NCBI GenBank assembly: GCA_030019255.1
Contig: JASEFK010000004.1
Span: 15,370-79,369 of the forward strand
Origin: Actinomycetota bacterium
GTDB taxonomy: Bacteria; Actinomycetota; Geothermincolia; Geothermincolales; RBG-13-55-18
Reading direction: 5' to 3'
Length of the DNA stretch: 64,000 bases
Position 1 is the stretch's first letter, and every line of letters begins with the position of its first letter. A model generated the notes under the pieces. That model ran no database searches and was not told the origin of the DNA. It worked only from the letters and a program-made list of their open reading frames with translations. Shown here piece after piece: positions 2,742 to 14,355 of this stretch. The translations under genes were made by a program, and so were the position numbers.

Positions 2742-5206
2742 CTCTCCTCCCCCTCTTCCTCTTTTTCCTCCGACCACCCCTCGCGGGAGGCGAGGTGGGC
2801 GATGGAGGCCACCCGGTCCTCCTCCCGTAGGCTCATGACTCTGACCCCCTGGGTGGCTCGTCCCATGCGGGAGATGTCCTCCGCCGGCACCCTGATGACC
2901 ACTCCCTCCACGGATATGGCCATCAGTTCCTGGTTGTCCCTGACCACCCTGGCGCCCACTATCTTTCCCCTGGTCCCGCCTGCGGCGATGGTGCGCACCC
3001 CCTTGCCTCCGCGGTGGTGCCTGGGGTACTTGGATATGGCCGTTCGCTTCCCGTATCCCTGCTCGGTGATCACGAAAAGGTCGGCGTCCTCGGTGGCGAT
3101 GCCCATGGCGATGACCTCGTCCCCCGGGGAGAGGCTTATCCCCCGCACGCCGCGGGTGTTCCTTCCCATGGGCCGGCAGTCCGTCTCCGGGAAGCGGAGG
3201 GCCTGTCCCTCCCGGGTCACCAGCATGAGATCGCTGTGCCCGTCGGTGAGCCGGGTGTCGATGACCTCGTCCCCCTCCTGCAAGTCTATGGCTATGAGCC
3301 CGTCCCGGCGCGGAGAATCGTAATACTTGAACGGGGTCTTCTTGATCATGCCCTTCCTGGTGGCCATGACCAGGTAGCTTTCCTCCGGGTACTCCCGGGT
3401 GGCAATCACCGAGCATATCTTCTCGTCCGGTCCGAGGGGTAGCAGGTTCACCAGTGCCTGTCCCCTCGAGGTGCGTGAACCCTCGGGAAGTTCATAAACT
3501 TTCAGTCGGTAAGACTTGCCGCGATTGGAAAAGAAGTGGATGTAATGGTGGGTGGAGGCCACGAAGAGGTGTTCCACGAAATCGCCCTCCTTGAGGTTCA
3601 TGCCCGTCACCCCCTTACCCCCCCTCCTCTGGGTCCGGTAGGTAGCGATGGGAAGCCTCTTCACGTAACCGGAATGGGTGATGGTCACCACCACCTCCTC
3701 CTCTGCGATCAGGTCCTCGATCTCCAGGTCCTCGTAGTCGGGAACTATCTCCGTGCGGCGGGGGTCGGCGTATCTCTTCTTTATCTCCGTGAGCTCCTCC
3801 ACGATCAGGGCACGCACCTTCTTCTCGTCAGCCAGGATCTCCCGGAGGCGCGCTATCTCCTTCTTGAGCTCCTTGTGCTCCTCGCGGACCTTCTCCCTCT
3901 CCAGCCCGGTCAGGCGCTGGAGCCTCATGTCCAGTATGGCCTGGGCCTGTTCCTCGCTCAGTTTGAAGCGCATCATCAACCCGTCCCTGGCGTCCTGAAC
4001 GGTGCGCGACTTCTTTATCAGATCGATCACCGCGTCCAGGTTGGCCAGGGCCACCAGCAGGCCTTCCAGGATGTGTGCCCTCCTCTCCGCCCTGTCCAGC
4101 TCGAAACGGGTCCTTCTGGTAATAACTTCCACTTGGTGCGCTACGTAGGCCGCCAGTGCCTCCTTCAGAGATAGGATGCGCGGTACCCCGTCTACCAGGG
4201 CCAGCATGATGATGCCGAAGGACTCCTGGAGCTGGGTGTGCTTGTACAGCTGGTTGAGGACCACCTGGGGGGCCGCTTCCTTGCGCAGCTCCACCACCAG
4301 CCTCATGCCGGTGCGATCACTCTCGTCCCTGAGATCGGCTATTCCCTCCAGCTTCTTGCTTCTTACCAGCTCGGCTATGCGCTCCGTGAGACGCGCCTTG
4401 TTTACCTGGAAGGGGATCTCGGTTATAACGATGCGGCTCCTTCCCGACTTGGTCTGCTCGATGTGCGCCCTCCCGCGCACCTTTATGACTCCCCTTCCCG
4501 TCTCGTATGCCTCCCTCAAGCCCTCCAGGCCCATAACCACGCCGCCGGTGGGAAAGTCGGGCCCCTTGATGTAGCGCATCAGCTCCCGCGAGTCGAGTTC
4601 CGGGTTTTCGATGAGGGCCACGGTTGCGTCTATGACCTCTCCCAGGTTGTGCGGGGGTATGTTGGTGGACATACCCACTGCTATGCCCGACGAGCCGTTC
4701 GCCAGCAGGTTGGGGAACCGCGAGGGGAGAACGGTGGGCTCCTGGAGGGAGCCATCGTAGTTGGGCGTGAAGTCCACGGTGTCCTTGTCGATGTCCCGTA
4801 AAAGCTCCATGCTGATGGGGGAAAGCCTGGCCTCCGTGTAGCGCATGGCCGCCGGGCTGTCCCCGTCCACGGAACCGAAGTTCCCGTGTCCGTCCACCAG
4901 CTCGTAGCGGCTGGAAAAGTCCTGGGCCATGCGTACCAGGGTGTCATATATGGCGGCATCCCCGTGTGGGTGATACTTCCCCATGACATCTCCCACCACC
5001 CTGGCCGACTTGCGGTAAGGGCGGTTAGGGGTCAGGTTCTGCTCGAACATGCCGTAGAGGATGCGGCGGTGAACGGGCTTCAGCCCGTCCCGCACATCAG
5101 GCAGCGCTCTCCCCACGATTACGCTCATGGCGTAATCGATATAGGAGCGGCGCATCTCCTCCTCTATCTCCACGGTCTTCACTTTTCCAGACAATGCCTG
5201 CACCAT
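2738..5206 (-). CDS. gyrA: DNA gyrase subunit A
   Basis: 822 aa. The N-terminus carries the gyrase signature ...[21 protein letters not shown]. Acidic C-terminal tail. Confidence 0.97.
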
Positions 5207-5249
5207 TTCCGCATCCTCCCGTTAGCGAGGCCCGTGCGGGTTCCCAGCC

Positions 5250-7223
<1,974 letters not shown>

Positions 7224-7749: not shown

Positions 7750-8790
7750 TCATGTCCCGCATTTTAGGGCATCCAGGTTGATAATCCTTTCCGCCGTCGT
7801 CTCCCTGATTTCCTCCGTCGAGGTCACCAACACCTGCTCCCTACGCTTAAGATTCACCGCGAGCCTCTCGCGGTTCCCGGAGTCAAGCTCGGAGAAGCAG
7901 TCGTCAAACAACAGGAGTACCTTTTTGGGGGTCCGTTCCTCTATTATCCTCGCCTGTACCATCCTGCAGGCCAGGCAGAACATCTTCTGTTCTCCCTGCG
8001 AACCCTCCCTTCGCAGGTTCCTTCCGCCGAGGTAAAAGACCACCTCATCCCGATGCGGTCCGGAGAGGGTCATTCCCTTTCTTATTTCCGCCTCCTCCAT
8101 CCTCTCCAGCTTTTCCAGGTTGTCCTCCTCACTCTCCACCGAGAAGCTCGAATAATACTTGACTTCCACCTCCCCCATACCCCAGTCCTTCGTCTCCTCT
8201 TCCAGCATGCTGGACATGAGGTAGAGCGCCGCCCGCCTCTCACGCACTATCTCCATCCCCTGTCTCACGAGCAGAAGGTTCCAGTTCCTGATGTCGTCTG
8301 CCCTCCAGGTCTCCTTTCTCACCATCCGAAGGGCATGGTTTCTCTGCTTGAGGGTACGGTTGTATCCCTTTATAAGTTCCCCGTAGGACGCTTTCACCGC
8401 TTTTATGGTCTCGTCCACAAATCTCCTTCTCCATTCCGGGTTACCCTTCACCAGAAAAATGTCATCGGGAACGAAGGCCACCGCTCCGGCGGTTTTTAAC
8501 CTCTTTTTTAATGTGTTTTCCCCTCTCCTCAGGACCACCTTCCCTCTTTCCTCCACCTCCCCTGTCAAGCAACCTTCTACCCAACCTATCTCTTCCCCAC
8601 TCCTTATCATCTCCTGCATATCGGCTCCTTTTATGGACCTGCCCTCCACAAGATAAAAAACGGCCTCGAGAAGGTTTGTCTTCCCGACGCCGTTCTCTCC
8701 CACGATGAGGTTCAATCCCGGACCGAAGTATACTTCGAGGTCCTTGTGGTTTCTAAAGTTTTTTATCTTAACACCCGCCAACAATTTCAA
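7750..8790 (-). CDS. recF: DNA replication and repair protein RecF
   Basis: 346 aa. N-terminal Walker A GENGVGKTNLLEA. The ATGA start overlaps the dnaN stop. Confidence 0.9.
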   Translation of the reverse strand: MKLLAGVKIKNFRNHKDLEVYFGPGLNLIVGENGVGKTNLLEAVFYLVEGRSIKGADMQEMIRSGEEIGWVEGCLTGEVEERGKVVLRRGENTLKKRLKTAGAVAFVPDDIFLVKGNPEWRRRFVDETIKAVKASYGELIKGYNRTLKQRNHALRMVRKETWRADDIRNWNLLLVRQGMEIVRERRAALYLMSSMLEEETKDWGMGEVEVKYYSSFSVESEEDNLEKLERMEEAEIRKGMTLSGPHRDEVVFYLGGRNLRREGSQGEQKMFCLACRMVQARIIEERTPKKVLLLFDDCFSELDSGNRERLAVNLKRREQVLVTSTEEIRETTAERIINLDALKCGT

Positions 8791-9878
8791 ATCCTTACGG
8801 GCATAATAATATAAATAAAATCCTCGCTCCCCTTTTCCTTTATCACCCCCGGTTTTAAGGGTTCATTTATGCCCATGACCACGGTATCACCTTCGACCGA
8901 AGTTATACCGTCCTCCAAAAACTTGCCGTTGAAGGCAATGGTGACCGGCTCACCTTCGTAATCCACGGCGAGGGTTTCCCTTCCCTCCCCTACATCCCTC
9001 GACTCGCTGTTCAAGATTATCCTTCCCGGTTCTACCTGCAACTTTATGATGCTGTTTACCAGGGATGCCCTTTTAAGGGCGCTGAGTAGATCTTCCTTCG
9101 CCACTTCTACCATCTTCTCCATACTCTCCGGTATAAACTGTTCGTAGCGCGGAAATTTGCCCTCTATGAGCCTGACGGTAAAACCCGTGTTTCCATCATA
9201 AAATTTCAGTTGTCCTGCATTATCATCCCTAAATACTTTTATCGCACCGTTCTCGTTCACGTGCCTGGAAAAATTATGAAGAGGTGCGGCAGGAATGATG
9301 TAACTTCCCCTCTCTTCTGCCCTGAATCCCTCCCTTATCTTCTTAATGGCAAGGCGATAACTATCCGTACTTACCAGCCTCATCTCCTCCCCATCGAAGT
9401 CCATATAAATCCCGGTTAAGGTTGGTCTCTTCTCATCCCTTGAGGCCGCCTTTGAGACAACCTGGACGGATCGCGAGAAGAGAGATGGTTCGAGGTTGTC
9501 TATGACCAACGTGCCGACTTCAGGTGGAGTGGGAAAATCGTCCTTCGGCATGGTGAAGATCTTGAAGACATTATTTTCACCTACCACCTGCAGCTCGTTT
9601 CCCGTCAATTCCAGCACCATCTTCTCGTCCTTAAAATCACGCGATAGCTCGAGAAGTATCTTGTGGTTGACCACACAGCTTCCTTCATCCTCCACGTTCG
9701 CTGCACAATAAGTGGTCGTTGAGGACTCAAGGTCCGTGGTATATACCTTGACCCCATCACCATGGGCATCGAGTACGACACCGGAAAGAATGGGCATTAC
9801 ACTCCTCGAGCTAACGGAGAGCTGCACGAGTTGGAGGGCCTTCTGAAAGTCATCCTTCAAGACCTCGAATCTCATCAC
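8787..9878 (-). CDS. dnaN: DNA polymerase III beta sliding clamp
   Basis: 363 aa, three-domain clamp. The N-terminus MRFEVLKDDFQKALQLVQ is typical of DnaN. Confidence 0.95.
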   Translation of the reverse strand: MMRFEVLKDDFQKALQLVQLSVSSRSVMPILSGVVLDAHGDGVKVYTTDLESSTTTYCAANVEDEGSCVVNHKILLELSRDFKDEKMVLELTGNELQVVGENNVFKIFTMPKDDFPTPPEVGTLVIDNLEPSLFSRSVQVVSKAASRDEKRPTLTGIYMDFDGEEMRLVSTDSYRLAIKKIREGFRAEERGSYIIPAAPLHNFSRHVNENGAIKVFRDDNAGQLKFYDGNTGFTVRLIEGKFPRYEQFIPESMEKMVEVAKEDLLSALKRASLVNSIIKLQVEPGRIILNSESRDVGEGRETLAVDYEGEPVTIAFNGKFLEDGITSVEGDTVVMGINEPLKPGVIKEKGSEDFIYIIMPVRI

Positions 9879-10128
9879 CCATGCCTCCTTACTAATATCA
9901 ATGGAAATTTAAAAACCATATTCATTGTATTATTCCATGCGCAAAGCGCGGAAAAGTCGGTAATCGGGCATCCGAAGAGGAAGTCTGGGTTCCAGTGGTT
10001 GTGTAAAACGCTGTGTAAAAACAATGAATGGATGTGTGTAAACAGTGTACTGCATGAGTTCCGCTTCCGGTAAGGATGTAGAAACCCCGTAACTTATAAA
10101 CATCCTACCTCCTTCTGGTTACCGATTT
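9879..10128. promoter_or_regulatory. oriC: Probable oriC segment: AT-rich unwinding element plus DnaA-box-like repeats in the dnaA-dnaN intergenic region
   Basis: 250 bp noncoding, far more AT-rich than the genome. Three direct repeats TGTGTAAA(A/C) lie at 10000-10008, 10012-10020 and 10036-10044. Each is the reverse complement of TTTTACACA, an 8/9 match to the DnaA box TTATNCACA. TTATAAACA sits near 10094. An AT-run lies at 9890-9950. Confidence 0.55.
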
Positions 10129-11463
10129 TCAACATTTTTTCAACCGGTTGGTTATCTTCTGTACCATGTTGTATATATCCCTCTTTTCCTTCATAAGCTC
10201 CCTTATTTTTTCCACGGAGTGTATGGCCGTGGAGTGATGCCTCCCCCCGAGGGCGCTGCTGATGGCGGGGAGAGAGGCGTCGGTCAGCTCTCGGCAGAGA
10301 TACATACATATCTGGCGAGCCGTAACCAGATGCCTTGAACGGTTTGCGCTCTTTAACTGGTCGACCGTAATATTGAAGCACTCCGCAGTGACACTGATTA
10401 TCTGGTCGATGGTTATGTTGGTAGAGGGTTCCTCCGGAAGGATGTCGCGGAGAACCTCGGCGGCGAGATCAACGCTTATGGGCTGCTTTATGAGGTTGGA
10501 GTAGGCCACAACCCGTATAAGGGCGCCCTCGAGTTCTCGAATGTTGGACTCAAAGCGAGATGCTATGTAATAGATTACGTCGTCGGGGACCTCTTTTTTA
10601 TCAAGGTCCACCTTCTTCTTGAGGATGGCTATGCGCGTTTCGAGGTCCGGGGGTTGGATGTCGGTTATCAAACCCCATTCGAACCTGGATATTAACCTGT
10701 CCTCGAGGTTAGGAATATCCTTGGGAGGACGATCGCTGCTCAGAACGATCTGCTTGTTGTTATTATGCAGGTCGTTGAAGGTGTGAAAAAACTCTTCCTG
10801 CATTCGTTCCTTATTAGCCAGGAACTGAATGTCGTCGACCAGAAGCATGTCGTTGGACCTGTACTTCTTTTGGAAGCTAGGGACCCTCTTGTCGCGGATG
10901 GCGTCTATGTAATCGTTAACAAACTTCTCCGTGGAAACGTAGGTGATTTTAAGGTTGGGATAAAGCTTTTTAGTATAATGGCCTATAGCGTTCATGAGAT
11001 GGGTCTTACCGAGGCCCACGCCTCCGTAGATGTAAAGTGGATTGTAACACGTTGGATTTTCCGAGACGGACAGGGCAGCGGCGTGGGCGAAGCGGTTACT
11101 GGGTCCTATAACAAAGGTATCGAACGTAAACCTAGGGTTTAAATCCGAGGAAGCGGTGTCCTCATCAAGCAAGTTAACGTCGAGAAAAACCGGCTTCCTA
11201 CTTCCCTTTTTTCTACGGTCCTTGAAGGTGAGCCTTACTTCTCTAACCCCGTCAAAGGTGTCTCTTGCTACCTCTTGTATAAGTTTAAGATAGCGCTTGT
11301 CCACCCACTCCTTGGTGAAGATATTATTAGTGTAGAGCACCAGTGTGTCCCCCTCCACTCCCTCGAAGTGAACATTCTTTAACCAGATGGAGGAGGAATC
11401 AGGAATGCGTTCCTGTATTTTTTCCACGCATTTATCCCACAAGTGGCCGGTCTTAGGGGTCAT
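10129..11463 (-). CDS. dnaA: Chromosomal replication initiator DnaA
   Basis: 444 aa. AAA+ Walker A GGVGLGKTHLMNAIG. C-terminal DNA-binding domain. Confidence 0.97.
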   Translation of the reverse strand: MTPKTGHLWDKCVEKIQERIPDSSSIWLKNVHFEGVEGDTLVLYTNNIFTKEWVDKRYLKLIQEVARDTFDGVREVRLTFKDRRKKGSRKPVFLDVNLLDEDTASSDLNPRFTFDTFVIGPSNRFAHAAALSVSENPTCYNPLYIYGGVGLGKTHLMNAIGHYTKKLYPNLKITYVSTEKFVNDYIDAIRDKRVPSFQKKYRSNDMLLVDDIQFLANKERMQEEFFHTFNDLHNNNKQIVLSSDRPPKDIPNLEDRLISRFEWGLITDIQPPDLETRIAILKKKVDLDKKEVPDDVIYYIASRFESNIRELEGALIRVVAYSNLIKQPISVDLAAEVLRDILPEEPSTNITIDQIISVTAECFNITVDQLKSANRSRHLVTARQICMYLCRELTDASLPAISSALGGRHHSTAIHSVEKIRELMKEKRDIYNMVQKITNRLKKC

Positions 11464-11512
11464 AGGATCATCCCCCGAGGTGGGTCGCCGAACGCATCAC
11501 AAACGTATTCTA

Positions 11513-12253
11513 TTATAGCGACAGAATGCTCTGCAAGTAGGACTTGCCGGCATCGGACAGGAATCTTTTTCCATCTGACGACCGCGCTATAAGGCCCAGT
11601 TGCTCAAGCCTGACGAGCTCACGATGGGCGGTGCTCAGGCTTATCCCCAGCTCCTCGGCAACTTGGGAGGGACCGACGAACTCCTCCTCGGTGAGGAGGA
11701 AGAGGATGTTGTTCTGACGATGCGAGAGACGTTCCTCCAGGCCCGAGTAAGGCGAGGCGAGAGCGTGGCCGTTGGTCAGGGAAACCGCAACGTAAGTCCC
11801 CTCACCGGGATGGCTGAAGACCTGGAGCTCCCCACCGAGGTCTCCCACCTCCTTCTCCGCGAGATAGAAACCGAGTCCCACGCCGCGAATCACGGAACGG
11901 TGTATCTCCGTGGCGGTGGAATAACCCGGCTCCAGGGCGAGGTCCAGCCGACTGATACCAGGCCCCGTGTCCGAGATGTAGAACCGCTCCAGGGAGGGGT
12001 CCACCACCACGGAGGCGGCACAGGGAACGGCGTGAACGAGGTTGTCGATCAACTCGCGGAGGGTGGTCTCCGGAGGTTGCGGAAGCGCGGGCTCCAAGGC
12101 GGTCATCACTATGTCGACCACACGTTCGCGGAATGAAGGGAAGTCATTCATTACAACGTCGTGAACCAGGAAACCGTTTCCGTCGGGAACTGCGACCCTG
12201 GTGTGAGGAGGCTTTATAAACCAGCCCGCTTCCGAATCTCCCGCTCTATCCAT
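11513..12253 (-). CDS. GHKL-type ATPase domain (HATPase_c-like) fused to a C-terminal winged-helix HTH; function unknown
   Basis: 246 aa. N-box ELIDNLVHA, G1 box DTGPGI and G2 box GVGLGFYL fit an anti-sigma/RsbW-type GHKL fold. The C-terminus VGPSQVAEELGISLSTAHRELVRLEQLGLI is wHTH-like. The gene sits 49 nt upstream of dnaA on the same strand, and dnaA carries its own SD. Confidence 0.65.
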   Translation of the reverse strand: MDRAGDSEAGWFIKPPHTRVAVPDGNGFLVHDVVMNDFPSFRERVVDIVMTALEPALPQPPETTLRELIDNLVHAVPCAASVVVDPSLERFYISDTGPGISRLDLALEPGYSTATEIHRSVIRGVGLGFYLAEKEVGDLGGELQVFSHPGEGTYVAVSLTNGHALASPYSGLEERLSHRQNNILFLLTEEEFVGPSQVAEELGISLSTAHRELVRLEQLGLIARSSDGKRFLSDAGKSYLQSILSL

Positions 12254-12439
12254 CGTTTTTCACCCCCTTTTCACGTTTATGAAAAACCCTTGTAAATGGG
12301 GAAAAAGTTCCCGAAGCGTGAGAAATAGAACCGGGGTTGTGTACAAACGCGCTTCCTTAAAAGCGCTGGAATGCAGCCGTCACGGCCCAGGTATGACGGA
12401 ACCTGGGAGCCCCCTGAAAACAAGCGTGTAAGCGGTAAA

Positions 12440-12480
12440 ACAGAGTTTTCCACAGCTTTTTCAACACCTGTTGATAACCA
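12440..12480. promoter_or_regulatory. DnaA-box cluster upstream of the GHKL-wHTH/dnaA genes
   Basis: TTTTCCACA at 12446-12454 and TGTTGATAA at 12469-12477 (reverse complement TTATCAACA). Both are 8/9 matches to TTATCCACA. Confidence 0.5.
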
Positions 12481-12618
12481 GCCTATCCCCACCGCCGCGC
12501 TCGAGAGCAAGTCAGATTATAGCAAGGGTGCGAAGGGCGATTAAGGGGCATTTTTGACAGAAATGAGTCTGCCAGGCAGAGGGAGATCGTGGGGCTGGTG
12601 CTGTATTGTTTCAGTAGG

Positions 12619-14154
12619 CACGTTAGGGTTGAAAAAGATGAGAGACCACCCTATCCTCCCGGCAAAACAAGGAGAAGAGAAGCAAGAAGTGATCTCTAAT
12701 TGCACAATCTCCAATCCATGGTACTACATTTAGTCACCGAAGCGAATAGCCTGGAGGAGCTGGAGAAGAAGGTGGCCGAGGTGGTCTTCGAGCTGGGCCG
12801 AGCCCTGCTCAAGGCGGCCTACAAACACCTGGACGAAAAGCTTTCCAGGGAGAGGGAAAAGGGGCTCCGTAACCTCGGGATGAGAAAGAGGGACATCCTC
12901 ACCCGCTTCGGGGTCATCACCGTGAGGAGGAGGTACTTCAGGGACCGGGAGAGGCGCCACCGCTTCCTTTTAGACGAAGCCCTGGGCTGGGCAAAGGGGG
13001 CCTGGCCTTGAGCCCCACCCTAGAGGGCGAGGTCTTGAGGATGGCAAGCGAGACCTCCTTCCGCAAGGCATCCCGGTACCTCTCCCTCTTCCTGGCCCAG
13101 GAGGTGGACCACAACCTCTCCTCCACCGCCGGGTTCAGGAGAGGATGTCCGAGCGGACGGAGGAAAAGAGGAAAAGGGCGGGGGACCTCTTCCTCCGGGG
13201 CGCACTTCCCCCTCGCAGAAAAGAAGGCCCGGAGGTTGTTCATGGAGGCGGAAGGCTGCCTGGTCTCCACCCAGAGGAGAGGGGGCAAAAAGCACGAGCT
13301 CAAGGTGGGCATCTCCTACGAGGGCTGGTCCCCCCGGGGCGAGGGGAAGTGGAAAACCCGGGGAAGGCGGGTCTTCCTCTCCACCTCCGAGGGGGCCACC
13401 TTCCTCTCCGAATGGAGCGCCGATCTCGCCACCGTCTACGACCCTTCCGGGGTTTCCGAGATCATCTGGTCCTCCAACAGGGCCTTCTGGCTCAAGAGGG
13501 CCCCCGACCTCTTCTCCTCCACCTTCGCCCAGCTTTCCCGCTTCCACCTGAGAGGGTCCCTCGCCCGTGCCCTGGGCTTCTCAAGCGAGGCCTCCAGGCT
13601 CTTTTGCCTGGTCTGCGAGAAAAAGGCGAGGGAGGTGATCGCAGAGCTCGAAAAACACCAGGAAGAGGCCGTCGAGGAGAAAAGAAAAAAAGGATAGCGG
13701 GGGCCATCTCCTATCTCTCCTCCTTCTCCGGCTGGCTTTCCGACTGGAGGAATGTGCTCGCGGCTTCGGAGGACGACCGCTCCCCCGGGGCCATAGAGTC
13801 AAACATGGACAAGCTCGCCTCCGACCGCTTCAAGAAGCGGGGCATGAGCTGGTCCCGCAAGGGCGCGGACTCCATGTGCCAGATCGTGGAGCCCAGGGAA
13901 AACGGGGAGCTTCCCGCCTCCGTCTTGCGGAAAAGGAGGATCAAAGAGCGGACGGAGAAGAAGATCCTGGCCTCCCTCAGAAGGGAGGTGAGAAAAGATC
14001 CGGAAGCCTGGCTCCGAAAGCACATGCCGCTGCTCGAGTCAAGAAGCGGCGATCCCTGGGTGAAGGAAGTGCTCCGAGGGCTTGCTGGTTATTCAATGAT
14101 CGCTTGAGATGTTTTGTCGGGATGAGGCGCCTACTTTTTGTGGACAGTAACGTG
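12619..14154 (+). mobile_element. Decayed IS of the ISLre2/UPF0236 transposase family
   Basis: Imperfect terminal inverted repeats: cacgttagggttgaaaaag at 12619-12640, and ctttttgtggacagtaacgtg at 14133-14154. They bracket a transposase split over three frames. Length about 1.5 kb. Confidence 0.5.
12700..14107 (+). pseudogene. ISLre2/UPF0236-family transposase, frameshifted with substituted catalytic residues
   Basis: Three consecutive ORFs (12700-13011, 13008-13697, and about 13690-14107) together give about 470 aa. They are colinear with UPF0236 transposases: ...FGVITVRRRYFRD..RFLLDEALGW; FMEAEG...KVGISYEGW...YDPSGVSEIIWSSNRAFW...QLSRFHLR; ...[19 protein letters not shown]. The DDE-position residues are changed (LFIEADG to FMEAEG, NGDGA to SSNRA). 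There are at least two frameshifts. Confidence 0.6.
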
Positions 14155-14220: not shown

Positions 14221-14355
14221 ATGAAGAGAACCTATCAGCCGAATACCAGAAAAAGGAAAAAGAACCACGGGTTTCGAAAGAGGATGAGCACCCGTGCCGG
14301 TCGCGCTATACTCAAGAGGAGGAGGCTGAAGGGCAGGAAAAGGCTAAGCGCCTGA
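14221..14355 (+). CDS. rpmH: 50S ribosomal protein L34
   Basis: 44 aa: [44 protein letters not shown]. Confidence 0.92.

Follow-up and report, generated by a model that had tools for sequence, protein, structure and literature searches.

A conserved gene in front of dnaA

In a 64-kb stretch of an Actinomycetota genome (contig JASEFK010000004.1; hereafter the window, to which all positions refer), dnaA is preceded on the minus strand by an open reading frame (ORF) at 11513..12253, which we call gene X, a shorthand used here also for its family. Gene X is a real gene that joins an ATP-binding domain of the GHKL type to a DNA-binding winged helix-turn-helix (wHTH) domain. Across classes of the Actinomycetota, and in at least one genome labelled as Clostridia, it is a long-standing partner of dnaA and has been inherited together with it. 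A functional link between X and dnaA or initiation appears well supported by sequence comparison, and it is highly probable that X takes part in controlling DnaA or initiation.

The ORF begins with ATG behind the Shine-Dalgarno sequence GGGGGTG and lies, as a first-pass annotation of the same sequence had said, between upstream DnaA boxes and dnaA. The distance of 49 nucleotides (nt) to dnaA on the same strand, also given there, is exact, and no terminator-like hairpin is found in this spacer. The core of the locus comprises (aa, amino acids):

11513..12253, minus strand: gene X, promoter-proximal cistron of the X-dnaA operon, coding for a GHKL-wHTH protein of 246 aa (ORF list, homologues, full-length alignment from residue 1)
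11464..11512, minus strand: X-dnaA spacer of 49 nt, holding the dnaA ribosome-binding site
10129..11463, minus strand: dnaA, 444 aa (Pfam DnaA_N, Bac_DnaA and Bac_DnaA_C)

A scan of metagenomes returned at least 500 relatives, of which 80 loci were kept. With the window proteins as tblastn queries, dnaA was detected directly 3' of X, and in the same orientation, in 73 of 73 non-redundant loci, which answers the question, raised by the first-pass annotation, whether orthologues stand upstream of dnaA in related genomes. The only family loci without a dnaA match are those with 505 nt or less of downstream sequence. From the X stop codon to the first aligned DnaA codon the median distance is 51 nt (range 8-147 nt), with a gap of 8-9 nt in seven loci. 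No copy of X away from dnaA was seen among the 80 metagenomic loci and ten inspected contigs.

On the inspected contigs, rpmH-rnpA-yidD-yidC diverges from X-dnaA-dnaN(-recF-DciA-gyrB). This order is found at 71%, 54% and 35-37% identity, and in Thermoleophilia, in Coriobacteriales and in a Clostridia-labelled metagenome-assembled genome (MAG). The latter is otherwise Firmicutes-like, with jag, trmE and gidA on one side and dnaN, S4_2, recF, DciA, RemA and gyrB on the other. In locus L036 (positions 3740-6027 of a 543-kb contig) the stop codon of X and the start codon of dnaA overlap, so that the two genes may be translationally coupled. Here a thiamine transporter, thiamin pyrophosphokinase and MoeA stand upstream in place of rpmH-rnpA-yidC, and since X-dnaA is kept without rpmH, the linkage is to dnaA and not to rpmH.

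The divergence of the two proteins points in the same direction. Pairwise identities of X and of DnaA correlate across 58 loci (Mantel r=0.68, a value reached by 0 of 999 permutations), and the mean identities of 0.47 for X and 0.52 for DnaA indicate similar rates of divergence. Gene X is thus an old partner of dnaA and not an insertion, and the word "inserted" of the first-pass annotation has to be given up.

The family is large and spreads over several classes. With the single sequence as query, 92 close homologues were obtained, about 245-263 aa in length. Among 1.84 billion cluster representatives, a profile matched 371 clusters (50% identity) at E<=1e-30 and 1370 at E<=1e-10, and in a set of 5.8 billion sequences profile or single searches returned at least 2036 and at least 2247 clusters (90% identity). 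Taxonomy was taken from the labels of the source records, which name taxa at MAG level only. The closest named relative, at 72-75% identity, is Candidatus Solincola tengchongensis (class Geothermincolia); other labels are Actinomycetota MAGs, Coriobacteriia, Coriobacteriales, Coriobacteriaceae, Atopobiaceae, Miltoncostaeales and Thermoleophilia, and one MAG labelled "Clostridia bacterium" also carries a member. Members from Coriobacteriia form clusters of 100-180 sequences and are present on contigs of 2.0-2.2 Mb. A scan of GTDB genomes with over-specific peptide patterns found one true relative (Ca. Solincola) and two unrelated HATPase matches (L002, L003).

Of 494 members, 490 carry both domains; among the other four, three or more are fragments 158-198 aa long. 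The family search that the first-pass annotation had proposed for the 246-aa protein led to generic HATPase_c and wHTH matches and to no characterised family: a description of the family was found neither in Pfam and NCBIfam nor in the papers searched, and no NCBIfam model reaches its cut-off on X, the best being SpoIIAB (TIGR01925) with 26.1 bits against 135.

It could be argued that X has nothing to do with replication and regulates other genes, as a housekeeping sensor of ATP that makes use of the strong dnaA promoter. Its domains are indeed generic, and the source records name the members just "ATP-binding protein", "HTH domain-containing protein" or "anti-sigma regulatory factor (Ser/Thr protein kinase)". 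However, hitch-hiking seldom outlasts divergence at phylum level, and here the linkage is complete, it persists where the upstream neighbours have changed, and it comes without any unlinked copy in the loci and contigs listed above. We therefore regard this explanation as quite improbable.

Domain structure of protein X

The following elements were assigned in the protein:

11774..12211, minus strand: N-terminal beta-hairpin and helix with Bergerat-fold ATP-binding domain, residues 15-160 (Pfam, AlphaFold2, Foldseek, invariant residues)
12029-12055, minus strand: N box, E67-L-I-D-N71-L-V-H74-A75
11957-11971, minus strand: G1 box, D95-T-G-P-G99
11870-11887, minus strand: G2 box, R123-G-V-G-L-G128
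11729..11773, minus strand: inter-domain linker, residues 161-175 (pLDDT <50 at residues 163-167)
11516..11728, minus strand: C-terminal wHTH, DeoR/IclR/MarR-like, residues 176-246 (Pfam, PDB profile matches)

The N, G1 and G2 boxes, which the first-pass annotation had named, are borne out by a Pfam HATPase_c match to residues 62-159 (E=5.7e-11, 43.3 bits, cut-off 26.4) and by the conservation of the motif residues at 99-100% in alignments, made first with 32 homologues and then with the 494 family members. In the latter, N71, D95, G97, G99 and G128 are conserved to 100%, G124 and G126 to 99.8%, H74 to 99.4% and E67 to 95%; G152-T153 is a further motif of the nucleotide site in the alignment. 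With the Mg-binding Asn of the N box, DxGxG, GxGxG and an alpha/beta sandwich, X belongs to the GHKL/Bergerat-fold ATP-binding superfamily. The invariance of the ATP-site residues argues that nucleotide binding, presumably of ATP, is under strong selection.

An AlphaFold2 model of X based on the homologue alignment has a mean pLDDT of 86 and consists of an N-terminal beta-hairpin and helix (17-53), the GHKL sandwich (62-158), a disordered linker and a three-helix winged HTH (178-245). With this model, Foldseek retrieved from the PDB the catalytic (CA) domains of histidine kinases (ZraS, HK853, YycG, CckA) and PDK/BCKDK. A profile search of PDB sequences placed the CA domain of KinB on top (3e-11); further down are the MutL N-terminus (1e-6) and SpoIIAB (6e-6).

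The C-terminal wHTH, also claimed before, is confirmed by several Pfam models above their cut-offs on residues 176-231 (score/cut-off: HTH_IclR 27.9/22, HTH_24 23.8/21.9, HTH_DeoR 23.5/21), with MarR models staying below (22.4/24.6 and 23.7/27). In the AlphaFold2 model it comprises helices 178-189, 195-202 and 206-218 and strands 222-224 and 230-232, so that a three-helix bundle with a wing and a model above cut-off identify a winged HTH of IclR/DeoR/MarR type. Among PDB sequences the C-terminal part matches a PhiH1 repressor-like protein, AdcR and MntR. The best matches are wHTHs of bona fide transcription factors, including the C-terminal wHTH of the ligand-sensing Csa3/CasR. In the 494 members, R211 of the recognition helix is kept in 98%, R230 of the wing in 96% and K229 of the wing in 87%.

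The length of the linker between the two domains differs widely in the family, with extremes of about 11 and about 212 aa and a median of about 26. Family members reach 491 aa, the N-terminal extensions and linkers being of low complexity and rich in Pro, Gln, Ala and Ser; no additional Pfam domain was found in the long members. Four of these (P0228, P0220, P0112 and P0138, 428-491 aa) have Pro/Gln/Ala-rich linkers of up to about 212 aa and N-terminal extensions of up to about 158 aa. P0228 is labelled Atopobiaceae and P0112 is from the Clostridia-labelled MAG.

Such a protein might act on another protein as a partner-switching anti-initiator, that is, its GHKL module would bind DnaA and may phosphorylate it on Ser/Thr, much as SpoIIAB and RsbW bind and control the sigma factor of the next gene downstream, with the wHTH serving only as a tether near the origin. 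X has indeed a GHKL module of CA type without DHp or a conserved His; its N-terminal order of strand(s), helix and N-box helix appears to be that of SpoIIAB; and the SpoIIAB model is its top NCBIfam match. The latter score is far below the cut-off (26 bits against 135 for TIGR01925), and in the profile search the domain is nearer to the histidine-kinase CA domain than to SpoIIAB. The position of the gene directly before its presumed target would resemble rsbW-sigB and spoIIAB-sigF, but no STAS-type antagonist or other partner was found in the operon at the inspected loci, and we know of no Ser/Thr phosphorylation of DnaA of this kind. In favour are also the very short or overlapping X-dnaA junctions in several lineages, the weak charge of the wHTH and the lack of an operator other than DnaA boxes (see below), as well as the long disordered linkers, which suit a tethered effector better than an allosteric transcription factor. 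Precedent exists in CcrZ, a protein of kinase fold that controls DnaA (PMC8387234). Taken together, we consider this explanation possible though rather unlikely; it is the main rival of the reading favoured below. Its wider form is unlikely, too, and somewhat more so: X would found an unrecognised class of GHKL anti-initiators, tethered by their wHTH, that bind or phosphorylate DnaA in an ATP-dependent manner, as anti-sigma kinases do with sigma factors, and provide the missing DnaA control of Coriobacteriia, Thermoleophilia, Geothermincolia and their relatives.

Control region upstream of gene X

Upstream of gene X a compact arrangement of DnaA boxes and promoter elements was found:

12446-12454, plus strand: DnaA box TTTTCCACA, one mismatch to TTATCCACA
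12458-12466, plus strand: third DnaA box TTTTCAACA, between the other two
12469-12477, minus strand: DnaA box TGTTGATAA (minus-strand reading TTATCAACA), one mismatch to TTATCCACA
12446..12477: DnaA-box triad, in operon-strand order one forward box, 2 nt, and two reverse boxes phased by 12 nt
12338-12346, minus strand: fourth DnaA box TTGTACACA, in the leader
12516..12544, minus strand: candidate operon promoter with extended -10 TGcTATAAT (12516-12524), 17-nt spacer and -35-like TTAATC (12539-12544)

The boxes at 12446 and 12469 stand where the first-pass annotation had put them; the third and the fourth had been overlooked. In the whole window, 14 boxes with one mismatch to TTATCCACA and zero perfect ones were counted. 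All 13 aligned relatives keep the triad, and it recurs in two distant clusters of loci, of which one is rich in GC and the other in AT; the fourth box falls in a conserved block of columns, where the relatives read TGTGCA(C/T)A. Counting boxes with up to one mismatch to TTATCCACA or TTGTCCACA across the loci gave the following rates:

500 nt upstream of X: 6.65 boxes/kb, at least one box in 63 of 64 loci and at least two in 56
dnaA-dnaN gap: 6.40 boxes/kb, at least one box in 47 of 52 loci
X and dnaA coding sequence: 0.36 boxes/kb

DnaA boxes are hence enriched about 18-fold upstream of X and in the dnaA-dnaN gap, far above chance.

Footprinting with an alignment of 13 loci (50-75% protein identity) revealed, in the order of the operon strand, an A-rich block, the -35-like element, a 17-nt spacer, TGnTATAAT, the triad about 40-55 nt past it, the fourth box about 100 nt past the triad, T-rich tracts and a GGTGAA Shine-Dalgarno sequence. 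TATAAT is almost invariant in these loci and the -35-like consensus is TTAAYC. The TGnTATAAT element is a candidate for the operon promoter, which a simple promoter scan missed because the -35 is weak. Lying downstream of this conserved element, the upstream boxes would be part of the transcribed leader, a layout that is expected for an autoregulation of the operon by DnaA. For an RNA element in the leader, no Rfam match was obtained and the folding is no better than that of shuffled sequences (z=-0.86).

Some further elements were observed in this region. In front of the promoter element stands a conserved A-rich block, TGTCAAAAATGCC (both within window 12516-12560, minus strand), which may serve as an UP element or be bound by a protein. 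Next to the candidate promoter, on its upstream side, a terminator-like hairpin TCTGCCTGGCAGA with a T-rich tail (12568-12580, minus strand) may insulate it from read-through from the side of a transposase remnant. In four loci (L019, L021, L022 and L023), the stretch from the fourth DnaA box to the Shine-Dalgarno sequence holds 4-5 direct (C/T)TTTCC repeats, about 10-11 nt apart and lying about 120 to 20 nt upstream of X. The local DnaA box has TTTTCC as its 5' half, and the repeats might be weak DnaA sites, X sites or a pyrimidine-rich leader.

The genuine insertion at this locus is the remnant just mentioned, and not gene X. It is a decayed, frameshifted UPF0236 gene at 12700-14107 on the plus strand, in three ORF fragments that cover profile positions 2-91, 158-313 and 310-390; UPF0236 is an ISLre2-type transposase family. 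The remnant sits between the X promoter region and rpmH and roughly doubles the intergenic distance from rpmH to X, which is about 1970 nt here against 970-1180 nt in relatives.

The dnaA-dnaN gap and the probable unwinding site

The second cluster of DnaA boxes lies downstream of dnaA:

9879..10128, minus strand: dnaA-dnaN gap with probable unwinding module
10000-10008 and 10012-10020: tandem co-oriented TTTTACACA boxes, overlooked in the first-pass annotation
9938-9955: weak box pair
9918-9935: six central-A triplets, GAA TAA TAC AAT GAA TAT
9890-9917: AT-rich tract, followed by the dnaN ribosome-binding site

In a basal unwinding system, two boxes of the same orientation are followed by DnaA-trios, whose central adenine is conserved, and then by the unwinding region (PMC10721633). 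The layout of the gap, with box pairs, central-A triplets and AT-rich tract, matches this order and is conserved in relatives. On its sense strand the longest run of central-A triplets has a mean of 5.35, compared with 3.83 in shuffled sequences, and 16 of 54 loci reach p<=0.05; on the antisense strand of the gap and on both strands upstream of X only two loci each do so. The GC skew changes its sign near position 10000. The restriction of trio-like repeats and AT-rich tract to the gap, together with this change, points to an unwinding site that most likely lies downstream of dnaA. The upstream boxes can hence not be called the origin cluster, since the cluster in the gap is equally dense.

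Box clusters on both sides of X-dnaA allow for an architectural role. Dimers of X, formed on ATP, would bridge the two clusters, loop out the operon and so organise a bipartite origin. The occurrence of the clusters in nearly all loci fits this picture (63 of 64 upstream, 47 of 52 downstream), and the flexible linkers could span the distance. Moreover, the GHKL domains of GyrB, MutL and Hsp90 dimerise on ATP, motif I of X (ExxxNxxHA) is spaced as the ExxxNxxDA of MutL and Hsp90, and the MutL N-terminus was matched at 1e-6. On the other hand, neither a transducer domain nor another GHL feature was found in a protein of just 246 aa, and, DnaA boxes aside, the two clusters have no X-specific repeat in common that we could find. 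Such a role is accordingly improbable.

Neighbourhood of the locus

The window covers a classical origin region, with putative gyrA and gyrB and with recF, dnaN, dnaA and gene X on the minus strand and rpmH, rnpA, yidD and yidC on the plus strand. Further plus-strand ORFs we take, by the gene order of related loci, to be putative jag, rsmG, parA and parB. The nearest neighbours are:

7750-8790, minus strand: recF
8787-9878, minus strand: dnaN
about 14221-14355, plus strand: rpmH

The G+C content is 0.50-0.51 across dnaN-dnaA (window 8001-12000), as compared with 0.63-0.69 in most of the window. Variation of the gene order was observed downstream of dnaN in a few related loci. On a 968-kb contig (L008/L026) dnaN is followed by BacA, MgtE and Nramp and not by recF. 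In L092 and L094 a small gene, S4_2 (yaaA-like), separates dnaN from recF, and in L094 a RemA-like gene stands before gyrB.

Proposed role of gene X

We favour the reading that X is an ATP-switched, DNA-anchored regulator of the supply or activity of DnaA, made together with DnaA. This proposal is tentative and its probability falls somewhat short of even. It builds on the architecture, the invariant nucleotide site, the operon-type linkage to dnaA, the co-inheritance and the box clusters on both sides; from these we infer that ATP is the ligand, that X dimerises, that it binds DNA and where, and in which direction it acts. X would be the promoter-proximal gene of an ancient X-dnaA(-dnaN-recF) operon, and its product a stand-alone ATP-binding module of histidine-kinase type without DHp, which a flexible linker joins to a DeoR/IclR/MarR-like wHTH. 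Binding of ATP would change the self-association of the GHKL module, and self-association would pair two wHTH domains on the box-bearing control region of the operon itself, possibly also on the dnaA-dnaN origin. Bound X would then set either the amount of DnaA that is made or the freedom of DnaA to occupy its boxes. As X and DnaA would come from one transcript under the control of DnaA boxes, they would be made in a fixed ratio.

The regulator reading is favoured because it follows the commonest logic for a sensor with an HTH that is encoded with its target, and because the wHTH is like those of ligand-sensing regulators. Several points weigh against it. The known stand-alone GHKL signalling modules, SpoIIAB and RsbW, act on proteins and not on DNA. 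Linkers of such variability and disorder (11-212 residues) are unusual in an allosteric one-component transcription factor. The net charge of the wHTH has a median of 0 in the family and is -2 in the window copy, which is less basic than in typical DNA binders. Footprinting in three independent groups of loci delivered promoter elements, DnaA boxes and T-rich tracts only, and no X-specific operator. Finally, X and dnaA are tightly spaced (8-9 nt in seven loci) or overlap (L036), a hint that X forms a physical complex with DnaA and does not act by transcriptional control alone. It should be added that the two boxes in head-to-head orientation form a palindrome, which could also serve the wHTH as a site, inseparable from the binding of DnaA.

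The suggestion of the first-pass annotation that X regulates dnaA or initiation thus stands in part. The link to dnaA is upheld by the 73 loci and by the search that led to no characterised family, whereas the idea of an inserted gene is not, and the upstream boxes are one of two clusters.

X bears on the question of what keeps DnaA in check in bacteria other than E. coli, Bacillus and Caulobacter. Homologues of the known DnaA regulators are reported not to have been identified in mycobacteria and many other bacteria (PMC5720831). X is a strong candidate for a missing replication regulator in several Gram-positive lineages: it is tied to dnaA over class-level and probably phylum-level divergence, with an invariant nucleotide site and a DNA-binding domain. 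If it acts on DnaA itself, this would be a new principle of initiation control, based on a kinase-type ATP switch. Coriobacteriia are common in gut metagenomes and X is abundant there, which makes genetics and biochemistry feasible in cultivable relatives. In addition, X offers a new marker gene to tools that predict origins.

Comparison with known systems

The closest matches of X in sequence and structure are the CA domains of histidine kinases (KinB, HK853, YycG, ZraS), with which it shares the N, G1, G2 and G3 boxes and an F-box-like lid segment "LEPGYST". X is nevertheless not a two-component histidine kinase, because it has neither a HisKA/DHp domain nor a conserved upstream His. No HisKA-type match was obtained at E<=1, and no conserved His was found N-terminal to the CA domain, where about 50 residues precede the N box. 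X is also unlike histidine kinases in having no sensor or transmembrane part. An adjacent response regulator was not seen in the inspected loci, where the neighbours are rpmH/rnpA/yidC and dnaA/dnaN/recF.

With SpoIIAB and RsbW, X has in common a small GHKL domain without DHp, a Glu that is conserved at the fourth position before the Mg-binding Asn, a His that is conserved behind this Asn, and a gene directly before that of a DNA-binding initiator protein in the same operon; presumably the strand and helix that precede the N-box helix of SpoIIAB belong to the shared features, too. It differs in its own wHTH, in the position of the His (N+3 and not N+4) and in the downstream gene, which is dnaA and not a sigma factor. 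X does not belong to SpoIIAB/RsbW proper: the score of 26.1 bits stands against a cut-off of 135, SpoIIAB chains rank behind many histidine kinases, and no STAS or sigma factor gene was found in the inspected loci. HATPase-only regulators exist in Streptomyces, as exemplified by SspH (PMC9137472).

The GHL ATPases (GyrB, MutL, Hsp90, MORC) were rejected, as only a disordered linker lies between GHKL and wHTH and no transducer domain, which in these ATPases supplies a Lys to the gamma-phosphate; the resemblance to MutL is limited to motifs I-II. IclR, DeoR and MarR families proper were rejected as well, with matches to their HTH sub-models and none to effector domains. One-component regulators such as Csa3/CasR, DeoR and IclR have the same order of sensor and wHTH, and the wHTH of X matches their models. 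Their sensor is a CARF, sugar-binding or IclR effector domain, whereas X has a GHKL domain and a long, disordered and highly variable linker. A defence gene was considered, too, and rejected: the PADLOC matches are weak and confined to the wHTH (Csa3/CasR, E about 2e-6), and the context is an invariant origin region.

Among the Foldseek matches listed, the only structure aligned over both domains is of the DIP2311 type (PDB 3lmm; AlbA_2, HATPase_c_4 and wHTH), with a TMq of 0.45 over 261 columns. AlbA_2 is not present in X, the root-mean-square deviation of 12 A implies another arrangement of the domains, and the genomic context is unrelated.

With the known regulators of DnaA, X shares the presumed role of modulating DnaA. 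No similarity to YabA, SirA, Hda, DiaA/HobA, Soj/ParA or CcrZ appeared among its Pfam, NCBIfam, PDB and Foldseek matches, and to our knowledge none of the known regulators (YabA, SirA, Soj, Hda, DiaA/HobA, CcrZ) is encoded as the first gene of a dnaA operon. In Firmicutes, the ATP-binding, kinase-fold protein CcrZ modulates DnaA (PMC8387234).

The layout of the locus resembles the incAB-dnaA-incC region of Bacillus subtilis, with box clusters on both sides of dnaA and, downstream, a co-oriented pair, trio-like repeats and an AT-rich tract. It differs from that bipartite origin in the additional conserved protein-coding gene between the upstream cluster and dnaA. Gene X combines domains that are already known in a way, and at a place, that are new and very widely conserved, and its role is probably linked to replication.

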